From an uncultured bacterium (GTDB lineage Bacteria; Patescibacteriota; Minisyncoccia; UBA6257; 2-01-FULL-56-20): 64,000 nt of DNA. The notes under the pieces are model-generated. The model had not been told where the DNA came from. It was given only the letters and a program-made list of their open reading frames with translations, and made no database searches. Location of the stretch: the NCBI GenBank assembly GCA_963830935.1, contig CAWHOC010000016.1, forward strand, positions 13,852 through 77,851. The letters are read 5' to 3'. Below, piece after piece: positions 61,189 to 63,807 of this stretch (the stretch's first letter is position 1; every line of letters begins with the position of its first letter). A program made the position numbers and the translations under genes.

Positions 61189-61861
61189 TTAGATATCGCC
61201 GCCTTTCGCACTCTTGGGTCAGTTGTAGATATTATTTTGCATGATGCGGGGGCTGCTTTATCGAGAGTTAATAATGGAACAAAGGTTATCGAAAAAGAGT
61301 TAAAAAAATAAAAGATCCTTCCGAGCCACGCATTAAAGAATGTTGCAGCTGTTTCGGTGGGTCAACAGTTACTTGGAGAGCTTTTTAAGCGCCTCGAACC
61401 ATTTGGAGGAAGGGGAAGCGACAAAAGATATTTTAGTAACGAAAGCAATTGGGGAAGTATTTAAATTTTGAGCGATCTGATAAAAAACCTTTCTATAAAA
61501 ATTATACTTTCAGAAAAAGCTGAAGAAATATTTCTGAGTCGGATTTCAAGATGATCTTTCTCAATCTTATTGATAATAGCCTTTATTGGTTAAAAAAAGT
61601 TCCTGAATCGGAAAGAATAATAGAGGTTCTTTTAAAGAAGGGTGAAAACAATTTAGAGATCATTTTTAGCGATAGCGGTCCGGGAATATCATTCGAAGAT
61701 GCGCCTTTCATTTTTGATCCTTATTACACAAAAAAACCTGGGGTATTGGTTTGGGCCTTACCATCGTTGGAGAATTTGTCGCAGAAGCTGAAGGATCTTT
61801 CGATCTTGTCAAAAGGGGCCCCTAAAAGGTGCCACTTTTAGAATAAAGTTTCCTTTAAATT
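61189..61861 (+). pseudogene. cytoplasmic histidine kinase (HisKA + HATPase_c, no sensor domain), at least 4 frame breaks
   Basis: H-box-like ILHDAGAAL; N-box NLIDNSLYW; G1 IFSDSGPGI; G2 GGIGLGL in a shifted frame; C-terminal LKGATFRIKFPL. Confidence 0.45.
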
Positions 61862-63008
61862 GACTTTGATGGAAAAGATTAAAGTCCTAATTGTCTATTA
61901 CTATATTATTATTGCTGGACAGCTTTTGCAATTATTGAATGGAGCAGAAATAGCAGATTGTAAGATTTTAGCAGAAGCTATTGGAGATTTTGATCGAGCA
62001 AAGGAACTTTTGGCTATAGGAAATTATGACGTTGTTATTTTGGACGTTTATAGAGGGGGGCCCTCAGAAGAAAATACGGATCTTGCAGGAAGAGAAGTTC
62101 TTGAAACAATTAAAACTACCGCGCCATTGGCAGTTATCTTCTATACCGGTCTCACGAGTCATGTTCAAGAATTAGCTTCTGATGTTGTAAGGGTGTTATC
62201 AAAAACAGGGGGCAATATTGAAAATGAGTTAAAACTCCTTTTAGAAACAGGAATTCCTCTAATGAGACAAAAAATTACAGGACACGTAAATGAAATCCTA
62301 AAGGATTATTATTGGGAGTTCATTGATAAAAACTCTAGCTTAATTCAAGATTCTCAAAATAAAGCTCTTTCGGAATATCTTCTCTTGAGGCGATTAGCGG
62401 CTACTCTTACAAGAGATGGAGTCCATAAAATATTTGGCGACGCCATTTCGTCTGACAAAATCCATCCTTTAGAATTTTATATTTTTCCCCCTATAGATGA
62501 GGCAGAGTTCGAAACGGGAGATATTCTTGAGAAGGATGGTGTCGGCTCCTTCCACGTGGTTTTGACCCCATCATGTGATTTTGCAAATCATAAAGCAAGT
62601 TTTATCTTATTGGTAAATGGAACTCTGCTAAAAGAAACTGACGAATATATTTCCTACGCCGCTGATAGAAGTAACGTTGCCGTGAAAGAGACTCTAAGTA
62701 GGGTCATAGGTTCTAGGCGCGGTGACCGATATTTTTTTCTTCCTCGGAGCGAACTTATGGCTATGCCTGACCTAGTTTTAGATTTTCAGAATTTAACAAA
62801 TCACCAACTTGAAGGATTTAGCGGCTATAAAAAAATTGGAAGAATAGATGATCCATTTGTGCAGGATATGCTCGCTACATTTATAAGAAATCAAAATCGT
62901 CCTGGATCTCCGGATCTGGATGTCACATATATTTTGGACTATATAAATAAAGATATAGACCCTCCAACGCAAGAAACAATTCCACAGGCACATGATAGAA
63001 AAGAATAA
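61860..63008 (+). CDS. atypical receiver domain (acidic pair replaced by Y-Y; phospho-acceptor Asp, Thr and Lys retained) fused to an uncharacterised ~250-aa C-terminal domain; intact
   Basis: KVLIVYYYIII...DVVILDV...VIFYTGLTS...VVRVLSK; I recognise no motif in the C-terminal domain. Confidence 0.45.
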   Translation: MTLMEKIKVLIVYYYIIIAGQLLQLLNGAEIADCKILAEAIGDFDRAKELLAIGNYDVVILDVYRGGPSEENTDLAGREVLETIKTTAPLAVIFYTGLTSHVQELASDVVRVLSKTGGNIENELKLLLETGIPLMRQKITGHVNEILKDYYWEFIDKNSSLIQDSQNKALSEYLLLRRLAATLTRDGVHKIFGDAISSDKIHPLEFYIFPPIDEAEFETGDILEKDGVGSFHVVLTPSCDFANHKASFILLVNGTLLKETDEYISYAADRSNVAVKETLSRVIGSRRGDRYFFLPRSELMAMPDLVLDFQNLTNHQLEGFSGYKKIGRIDDPFVQDMLATFIRNQNRPGSPDLDVTYILDYINKDIDPPTQETIPQAHDRKE

Positions 63009-63807
63009 GCAAGCATTAATAGTCGCATACTATCTATCGAAATATAATATAAAAGGATATCGGGATTTGGGCTATAAAAATTTTTCAGAGGCAGCTCGTG
63101 ATATTAGTACTTCCTTAGGTATTAAATTCAGTACATTTCAGAATATGCGTGACGAATTTGATCCATATCATGAAAATAATCGCGTGGGGTGGCATCAGAA
63201 AGGTTTAACAATTAGCCGGCGAAATGTTATGGAATCTTTTCGTTATATTAATGAGCAATCCTTACGAGAGATTGCCCTTGAGATCATTATTGGTAAAAAA
63301 CTTAGGGATTCTACTTGGATAAATAGTTCACTTCTCCTTAATAAAATTAATGATATCGGTGATACGCCTAAAGAAGATTTTCCAAGAGGCGTAACTGGTG
63401 ATAAGGCAGAAAAATATTTTATAGAGTATTTTAATAAATATCAAAAGCCATTTAAAGGAATCTTAACTGATAAACGTAGTGCGGGGTGTGGTTATGATTT
63501 TGAAATTGCATCGAATAATAAGAAATATTTTATTGAAGTCAAGGGTATCTCCTCCGAATGGGGAGGAATTTTGTTCACCAACAAAGAGTGGTATATGGCT
63601 CGTTTAAAAAAGAAAGCATATACCCTTGCAATAATTCTTGATCTAAAAAACGAGGGAGAAATCTATTTTTTTTCTGATCCCGCAAAAATCTTTTCTGCGG
63701 AGAAAAAAACCTCCCTAGTTCCACGCATTGATTGGCATGTTAGCTCAGCCAGTATCAAGACAATAATTTCTTCCGGCGCAGCGGATTTTTTAGGCTATCA
63801 TAGATAG
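62992..63807 (+). CDS. DUF3883 (restriction-endonuclease-like, PD-(D/E)xK) domain protein with an uncharacterised N-terminal ~100-aa domain; overlaps the upstream gene by 17 nt
   Basis: CGYDFEIASNNKKYFIEVKG...GGILFTNKEW matches the DUF3883 D...E.K core; intact; low GC. Confidence 0.5.
   Translation: MIEKNKQALIVAYYLSKYNIKGYRDLGYKNFSEAARDISTSLGIKFSTFQNMRDEFDPYHENNRVGWHQKGLTISRRNVMESFRYINEQSLREIALEIIIGKKLRDSTWINSSLLLNKINDIGDTPKEDFPRGVTGDKAEKYFIEYFNKYQKPFKGILTDKRSAGCGYDFEIASNNKKYFIEVKGISSEWGGILFTNKEWYMARLKKKAYTLAIILDLKNEGEIYFFSDPAKIFSAEKKTSLVPRIDWHVSSASIKTIISSGAADFLGYHR

Follow-up and report, generated by a model that had tools for sequence, protein, structure and literature searches.

The locus considered here, a run of genes for a cytosine methylase, a histidine kinase and a receiver fusion protein, lies in a 64,000-nucleotide stretch of DNA from an uncultured bacterium (contig CAWHOC010000016.1; this whole stretch is referred to below as the window), and its closest described counterparts are systems that pair a kinase with a receiver protein. 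Bellieny-Rabelo, Pretorius and Moleleki (2021; PMC8011034) described a two-component-like system associated with restriction-modification (R-M) systems and paraMORC ATPases, in which Response_reg_2 (PF19192) proteins are paired with HEF_HK (PF19191) proteins; these authors identified no further domain besides the receiver, and suggested a signalling or regulatory role over R-M systems. In Detocs (DtcA/DtcB/DtcC; Rousset et al., bioRxiv 10.1101/2023.01.24.525353), a kinase signals to a receiver-effector protein, and defence is lost when either the His of the kinase or the Asp of the receiver is mutated. Detocs is defined by a TPR kinase (DtcA), a stand-alone buffer receiver (DtcB) and DtcC, with all three genes being required; DtcC carries a PNP ATP-nucleosidase in 80% of operons and otherwise another cell-killing effector. 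A predicted, unvalidated HATPase + REC system also appears in a figure legend of a 2026 machine-learning survey (PMC13092281).

We suggest that the locus in the window is a degenerate copy of a cassette in which a C5 methylase gene is followed by the gene for a MORC-like histidine kinase and then by a gene that fuses a receiver to a toxin of the MazF/CcdB fold, so that kinase and fusion protein would form a phosphorelay-gated toxin arm. In our judgement this reading stands an even chance of being correct. An earlier, sequence-only reading of the window had singled out positions 61189-63807 as a candidate defensive module consisting of a decayed histidine kinase, an atypical receiver fused to an effector that it could not place, and a DUF3883 nuclease. 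What it observed is in large part right but mis-bounded, and about half of its interpretation holds.

The methylase, kinase and receiver-effector genes

The genes and sites on which the argument rests are the following.

58556-59793, plus strand: C5 cytosine DNA methylase (Dcm-type), the first gene of the cassette, a pseudogene (PF00145 matches the C-terminal piece).
59800-61860, plus strand: histidine kinase pseudogene with HATPase_c_3 (MORC/MutL-like GHKL), a conserved middle region, DHp and HATPase_c (from Pfam matches of the fragments and frameshift-aware alignment).
61240-61242, plus strand: predicted phospho-accepting His codon in the H-box 'ILHD' (from a 'vlHD/E' motif ahead of the 'LFkrlEPfGGRkR' helix in 17 relatives).
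61869-63008, plus strand: receiver-linker-MazF-fold protein, intact, 379 aa (from the list of open reading frames; 100% identical to protein P0001).
61896-61904, plus strand: Tyr-Tyr-Tyr (TAT TAC TAT) where receiver strand beta-1 ends, in place of the Mg-binding acidic residues (from protein and DNA alignment).
62043-62045, plus strand: codon of the phospho-acceptor Asp (D62 in the numbering of the open reading frame), retained (an invariant alignment column; Foldseek match of the model to receivers).
62478-62897, plus strand: predicted effector domain, a beta-barrel of the MazF/Kid/CcdB fold at residues ~207-346, holding the motifs LTPSCD (62562-62579), DRYFFLP, LDFQ and DDP.
62992-63807, plus strand: NOV_C/DUF3883 PD-(D/E)xK nuclease, intact, 271 aa, an accessory partner (PF13020, E 2.5e-16).

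Gene order was compared across 39 loci in genomes and metagenomes, some of them found by a search with a closer subset of the family alignment. The kinase gene is directly upstream of the receiver gene in all 39, and a C5 methylase gene is directly upstream of the kinase gene in 31 of 33. Judged by these neighbourhoods, the C5 methylase at 58556-59793 belongs to the same conserved cassette as the kinase and the receiver, and it is this upstream methylase that is the third partner, rather than the nuclease that had been taken as the defining one.

The bounds of the kinase gene were set by tblastn and by frameshift-aware alignment to two intact relatives of 688 and 689 aa (loci L001 and L002). 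Intact kinase relatives have a Pfam layout of N-terminal HATPase_c_3, conserved middle region and C-terminal HATPase_c, and the histidine-kinase C-terminus with its HATPase_c domain lies at 61551-61841 in the window. In the family alignment the N, G1 and G2 boxes are kept in both ATPase domains and an H-box stands before the catalytic domain, while residues 446-688 of the L001 kinase match the DHp and CA domains of FixL, ZraS, KdpD and HK853, with E values down to 8e-15. By these motifs the family is one of bona fide histidine kinases that have a second, MORC/MutL-like ATPase where a sensor domain is usual. The kinase that the sequence-only reading began at 61189 is indeed there, with its HATPase_c domain, but its true start is at 59800, about 1.4 kb upstream, and only the last third had been seen; nor is it sensor-less as supposed, the N-terminal HATPase_c_3 module and the conserved middle region being present.

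The fusion protein has 129 full-length relatives. Its listed open reading frame begins with TTG at 61860, but the gene more likely starts with the ATG at 61869, which is in register with the relatives. Among 37 aligned family members D62 is invariant, and T96 (Thr or Ser) and K115 are conserved; all three are kept in the window. The acidic pair is D/E-D in 35 of 36 relatives, the other (P0120) having a deletion there, and the Y13-Y14 of the window is the sole Tyr-Tyr case. In a DNA alignment with six relatives, the relatives' codons at this site are GAT GAY GAT. The alignment thus agrees with the earlier description of an intact frame at 61860-63008 encoding a receiver with Asp, Thr and Lys kept and the acidic pair replaced by Tyr-Tyr, and it indicates that the receiver family carries all five phosphorylation residues and that the window copy is without the Mg-binding pair. 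PF00072 is matched by 32 of 37 close and 35 of 40 distant relatives, and is not matched by the fusion protein of the window at E 0.01. We also observe that six codons in a row (61896-61913) differ from those of all relatives in their first base, where G has become T or A, changing DDDAVV to YYYIII; the resulting run, TAT TAC TAT ATT ATT ATT, is of low complexity.

The part of the protein beyond the receiver had been described as not placeable in any family. Its fold can, however, be placed by structure comparison. AlphaFold (AF2) models built from the family alignment are confident, reaching a pLDDT of 87.5 over the full length and 88.1 over residues 196-382. With the C-terminal model as the Foldseek query, every one of the 50 matches listed is a MazF-family chain (best E 5.6e-5; TM, relative to the target, about 0.7), and among these listed matches every close structural neighbour is a toxin; with the full-length model, solved receivers are matched and MazF is found among them. 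The domain therefore has, in the model, the MazF/Kid/CcdB toxin fold, and it is probably enzymatic or target-binding. The earlier statement that the effector is not of the PNP type is in keeping with this fold. Within the domain and just beyond it, C239-D240 (LTPSCD), R290 (DRYFFLP), D308 (LDFQ), R347, D352 and D354 are invariant, and Q310 and D330 nearly so; this set of polar and charged residues suggests an active site. The TPSCD and DFQ motifs had at first suggested to us that the C-terminal half was a PD-(D/E)xK nuclease, a reading that was rejected when the fold searches gave MazF/CcdB-type toxins only.

Sequence comparison recovers the family itself and little else. A profile of the C-terminal domain finds 2072 clusters (at 50% identity) at E values up to 1e-3 and 1135 at 1e-10, and among the best 150 profile matches the full-length ones have the receiver-plus-domain layout, the others being shorter fragments. 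The Pfam families PemK_toxin and CcdB are matched neither by the window protein nor by 77 relatives; searches of the receiver-effector protein against Pfam, NCBIfam and PADLOC gave nothing or marginal chance matches; and the C-terminal profile gave only chance matches against PDB sequences, such as Sm D1 at E 1.7.

Gene neighbourhoods and a possible mode of action

The nuclease gene of the window overlaps the receiver-fusion gene by 17 nt, and the earlier description of it as a DUF3883 PD-(D/E)xK nuclease with an extra N-terminal domain and such an overlap agrees with the PF13020 match and the coordinates of the frames. The N-terminal domain (residues 1-130, 62992-63400) is strongly conserved, with the motif ALIVAYYLS...NMRDEFDPYH..R.GW, and matches no Pfam family; it may be a DNA-binding or modification-reading module. 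The possibility that it is common to HNH_2 or other genes downstream of the receiver was tested, and it is not shared with them. A family of ~255-aa DUF3883 proteins, that of the window nuclease, is usually encoded by the second gene in clusters of the order Dcm-NOV_C-MzaB-MzaC-DUF4420-AIPR (L042-L045; 6001-6789), and has no PADLOC model of its own.

A pairing of receiver and DUF3883 nuclease, as put forward in the sequence-only reading, is real and coupled in a subclade, but it does not extend to the family. A DUF3883 gene lies directly downstream of the receiver gene in 6 of 34 loci, these being the closest relatives of the window that were checked (P0002, P0003 and P0010 among them) and two others; at the P0010 loci (L037 and L038) the two genes overlap by 4 nt. 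At L001 an HNH_2 gene takes the place of DUF3883, and at L002 an Mrr gene lies upstream. Bacteroidales loci have further methylases, AAA_5/McrB-like ATPases and MzaB/MzaC genes; the last are found at L010, L018 and L022, following the nuclease at L010 and L022 and directly following the receiver gene at L018. At L010 and L022 (~9086-14422) the kinase-receiver pair sits between the methylase and the DUF3883 nuclease of an MZA cluster. Other loci are without an additional nuclease gene: at L039, a minimal island, a recombinase, a helix-turn-helix (HTH) controller, the methylase, the kinase and the receiver-effector are followed by housekeeping genes, and at L004 and L005 the cassette runs straight into OmpA and KDO-transferase genes. 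Because of these nuclease-free loci, DUF3883 is best regarded, on gene order, as an accessory, one of several interchangeable nuclease partners. The minimal islands consist of the HTH controller, methylase, kinase and receiver-effector, or of those and Vsr, and in them the receiver-effector is then the only candidate effector. Because DUF3883/MZA genes, HNH_2 and Mrr vary around the same methylase, the latter looks like a hub for alternative 'restriction' arms.

The same neighbourhoods allow for a quite different role. The kinase-receiver pair could be a regulator, in which a non-catalytic binding module of the MazF/CcdB fold switches the neighbouring nuclease or methylase when the receiver is phosphorylated. 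Such a role would account for the variable nucleases beside the pair (HNH_2 at L001, Mrr at L002, NOV_C at six loci, MzaB/MzaC at L010, L018 and L022), the overlaps of receiver and NOV_C genes (4 nt at L037/L038, 17 nt in the window) suggest co-translation, and a signalling role over R-M systems is what the authors of PMC8011034 propose. However, a regulator of this kind would have no nuclease gene beside the triad to act on at L039, L004 and L005; the C-terminal domain has many invariant charged and polar residues that resemble an active site; and its close structural neighbours among the matches listed are without exception toxins. We therefore consider a regulatory role unlikely.

A phosphorelay-gated toxin, the reading that we prefer, would work as follows. 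The methylase would mark the cell's own DNA as self. The N-terminal GHKL module of the kinase would sense danger, with unmethylated or foreign DNA as the most plausible signal, and would trigger autophosphorylation of the His; unmodified DNA is put forward as the signal because of what MORC/MutL-type ATPases do. The phosphate would pass to the receiver Asp, and phosphorylation would either relieve inhibition of the MazF-fold domain or dimerise it. Activation by dimerisation is conceivable, MazF being active as a dimer and receivers often forming dimers once phosphorylated. The toxin would then arrest the cell or the invader, through RNA cleavage as with MazF or through gyrase poisoning as with CcdB. 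The whole would act as an R-M-like or abortive-infection module with the addiction typical of R-M systems, its 'R' arm being the phosphorelay-gated toxin, and the DUF3883, HNH_2, Mrr and MzaBC nucleases would be interchangeable add-ons of the same methylase.

Several points weigh against this scheme. The fold alone does not predict an activity, since MazF is an RNase whereas CcdB poisons gyrase, and the sequence identity to MazF or CcdB structures is 4-17%. The domain has no sequence-level match to PemK/MazF in Pfam or to PDB sequences, and the canonical catalytic Arg of MazF is apparently not conserved, a suggestive result from manual motif comparison. The signal assigned to the N-terminal GHKL module is purely conjectural. 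Finally, the only paper on the architecture (PMC8011034) proposes R-M regulation and not a toxin.

A more specific version would have the intact members of the family form a methylation-licensed two-component immune or addiction system, in which the MORC-like clamp ATPase-kinase reads the 5-methylcytosine mark and a phosphorelay leads to the receiver-gated MazF-fold toxin; we offer this version tentatively and think it rather doubtful. If it is true, an epigenetic self-mark would be coupled to a His-Asp phosphorelay that gates a toxin, linking R-M systems, two-component systems and MazF/CcdB toxins, and the 'R' of an R-M system would be a phosphorylation-activated toxin and not a DNA endonuclease. 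In any case, a MazF/CcdB-like output domain turns a 'hypothetical response regulator' into a testable toxin hypothesis. The family is a good experimental lead; the copy in the window is of value chiefly because it shows, as a natural case, how such a cassette is disarmed.

The cassette is found in gut Bacteroidales, Flavobacteriia, cyanobacterial and enterobacterial plasmids and at least one archaeal metagenome-assembled genome (MAG). Examples are a Candidatus Methanoperedens MAG (L031), plasmid pREB1 of Acaryochloris marina (L034) and a plasmid of Enterobacter mori (L033); the pair on this last, gammaproteobacterial plasmid is a clear distant member of the family (hhalign probability 99.7%). 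This spread over an archaeal MAG and plasmids indicates wide horizontal transfer. Full-length relatives of the kinase, at 28% identity, are also present on Campylobacter plasmids of ~51-55 kb. Copies that look decayed occur elsewhere too: in Chitinophaga sedimenti (L032) the methylase, kinase and receiver genes are all split, L015 has kinase fragments only and no methylase, and the kinase of L007 is split.

Apparent decay of the copy in the window

The C5 methylase of the window has three single-base frameshifts, at about 58808, 59658 and 59731, as shown by frameshift-aware alignment to the L037 methylase (234 of 410 positions identical, three events); tblastn with the L001 and L002 methylases likewise places it in three frames. 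Repair of the kinase requires about 14 frameshifts and two to three in-frame stops (TAA at 60082, TGG to TGA at 60330-60332, TAA at 61309), after which the protein is 62% identical to its intact relatives (429/688). The earlier statement that the kinase is frameshifted at least four times was correct as to the disruption but fell far short of its extent. The contrast that it drew with the two clean genes downstream is real: there are about 17 lesions in the 2.06 kb of the kinase and none in the adjacent 1.95 kb of receiver-fusion and nuclease genes, where equal neutral decay would predict about 16 (P(0) ~1e-7). This clean stretch beside so many lesions argues for continued selection or for very uneven error.

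The apparent decay could be an assembly artefact, with indel errors of sequencing or assembly producing the frameshifts and the real genome having an intact, working cassette. Just outside the island that holds the cassette, fusA (53676-55745), which encodes EF-G, falls in three frames owing to single-base indels near 54135, 54565 and 55693, none of them in a long homopolymer. EF-G is normally essential; the split gene is either a pseudogene or second copy, or the product of local assembly errors. Because fusA has these indels outside the island, some of the frameshifts in the cassette may be assembly errors too; indels of 1-2 nt account for the three lesions of the methylase and for most of those in the kinase, and several lesions are beside short homopolymers, e.g., at 61740 and 61811. 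Against an artefact, lesions run at about 7 per kb in the kinase, while the N4/N6 methylase (1.5 kb), receiver (1.14 kb) and nuclease (0.82 kb) genes have none, and host open reading frames of 788 and 905 aa are intact. There are also stop-making substitutions (TGG to TGA at 60330, TAA at 60082, and W to stop at 57709 in a BsoBI-like gene), and the Tyr-Tyr-Tyr change consists of six base substitutions across six codons and no indel. Because the lesions are clustered, and several are nonsense substitutions and not indels, we take much of the decay to be real, and regard a wholly intact cassette in the real genome as improbable.

The window cassette thus appears to have been disarmed at three points, its methylase, its kinase and the Mg-binding pocket of its receiver, and looks like a relic. 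Such disarming would be the expected outcome if the toxin arm became dangerous once methylation was lost. Two observations tell against so simple an account: that part of the frameshifts may be assembly errors weakens the case for disarming, and an intact receiver-toxin gene with a non-phosphorylatable pocket fits simple decay poorly. The receiver-toxin and nuclease genes either were inactivated only recently or keep a role that does not depend on the kinase.

In the latter case the Tyr-Tyr receiver with its MazF-fold domain and the DUF3883 nuclease would be a kinase-independent two-gene unit, as the sequence-only reading had hinted, in which Tyr locks the receiver in one conformation and which has been selected for a new or residual defence or addiction role. 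This would explain the complete lack of disruptions in the pair beside the ~17 of the kinase. It would also fit the low divergence of both proteins: the fusion protein departs from its family at only 4 of 64 conserved positions, with three of the four changes conservative, and the nuclease, which has 584 relatives (clusters), departs at none of the 56 positions conserved at 90% or more and keeps GYDFEI...IEVKG. Among the nearest relatives that were checked, the two genes likewise stay together and are coupled in translation. Replacement of an acidic-pocket residue, as in CheY D13K, can make a receiver active independently of phosphorylation, and the Tyr residues may be of this type. A constitutive toxin, however, should kill the cell unless neutralised, and no candidate neutraliser was seen; the acidic pair is replaced in this way in no other family member, so that no lineage shows such a state to be stable; the density of lesions in the kinase is possibly inflated by local assembly error; and the island is in general decay, as the nonsense codon of the BsoBI-like endonuclease and the frameshifted methylase indicate. 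We give an independent two-gene unit only a small chance, and retain the relic cassette as the preferred reading of the window copy.

The surroundings are those of a small defence island of low GC, as the sequence-only reading had recognised, with R-M genes to the left of the cassette. The island spans ~56000-63810 at about 35-40% GC, compared with 50-60% in the rest of the window; its left edge follows directly on fusA, and high G+C returns immediately past 63807, i.e., past the nuclease gene. Its gene order is N4/N6 methylase, BsoBI-like endonuclease (on the minus strand), C5 methylase, kinase, receiver-fusion and DUF3883. The first two genes are as follows.

56021-57514, plus strand: N4/N6 DNA methylase, intact, part of a separate type II R-M pair (PADLOC MTase_II, E 8e-154).
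57509-58390, minus strand: BsoBI-like restriction endonuclease with one nonsense codon (W to stop, 57707-57709); PF09194 matches both pieces.

Aligned in frame to the intact 291-aa enzyme of a metagenomic contig (L046), the BsoBI-like gene has that single stop and no frameshifts, and the enzyme is inactivated by the nonsense codon. The N4/N6 methylase is 90% identical to that of L046, the endonucleases just 68% identical to each other. Past the end of fusA and ahead of the island there is a 35-nt inverted repeat (55782-55816 and 55878-55912; 97% complementary, with a 61-nt spacer), which could be a terminator or the remnant of an integration site. The island borders were checked for direct repeats and tRNA genes, and none was convincing. 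Elsewhere in the window, a tRNA-like gene at 15626-15699 has no anticodon assignable by ARAGORN, and scores 37 bits with the Rfam tRNA model as against 53-73 for the other five tRNAs.

Relation to known systems

A kinase feeding a receiver-effector had been likened to the logic of Detocs, and that logic is shared: the kinase would signal to a receiver fused to an effector in place of a DNA-binding domain, effectors are swappable and the context is a defence island. The cassette is nevertheless not a member of Detocs. Its kinase has an HATPase_c_3 GHKL ATPase at the N-terminus, where no TPR was detected; the effector is of the MazF/CcdB fold and not PNP; and the cassette, unlike Detocs, is obligatorily linked to a DNA methylase. 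As for a stand-alone receiver comparable to DtcB, the window cassette has no receiver-only gene, the upstream neighbour being the methylase, and Response_reg is absent among the 25 families listed of 52 matched in a scan of 50 neighbouring genes.

PADLOC 2.0 has no named system for these proteins, in keeping with the suggestion of the sequence-only reading that the module may be an undescribed variant or a new system; it gave no Detocs-named match and only weak matches to PDC-M60B/C. Distant relatives gave weak PADLOC matches to PDC-M60B/C and SduA, and the two shown fall in the receiver part. The family is large, with its 2072 clusters, yet has no named entry in the defence-system library searched. 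In the literature we found no description of a receiver-MazF fusion, and no named defence system with this architecture beyond PMC8011034 and the prediction in the figure legend of PMC13092281.

Relative to MazF, PemK, Kid and CcdB, the modelled domain has the same CcdB/PemK SH3-like barrel fold, but it is fused to a receiver and a helical linker in place of being paired with a MazE or CcdA antitoxin, contains a ~30-residue helical insertion and has its own invariant residues (C-D, R, D-F-Q, D-D-P and P-D-x-D). No small antitoxin gene of the MazE/PemI/CcdA kind adjoins it, the neighbours being the 688-aa kinase upstream and the 271-aa nuclease or a variable gene downstream. The likeness to MZA-type clusters concerns the nuclease, whose family stands directly after the methylase there (L042-L045); the window differs in having no MzaB, MzaC, DUF4420 or AIPR, the island ending at 63807.

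The closest parallel is the system of PMC8011034. Common to both are a C5 methylase, a soluble kinase of the layout HATPase_c_3 + DHp + HATPase_c and a receiver-like protein of ~360-400 aa; the neighbours include Vsr, HNH_2 and type II R-M genes, and the taxa Bacteroides, Flavobacterium, Chryseobacterium and enterobacteria; the linkage is 91.6% there and 39 of 39 here. The two differ in that the proteins here match ordinary PF00072 or nothing, and in that the C-terminal half is placed here, by modelling, in the MazF/CcdB fold. Neither the window protein nor any of 77 relatives or five intact kinases, gammaproteobacterial and Bacteroides ones included, matches PF19192 or PF19191 at E values up to 0.01-10. 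Because the architecture has already been described computationally in PMC8011034, where no effector was identified, the cassette is not a wholly new system; it may instead be a sister family of the one described there, or a family that the models of that system miss.

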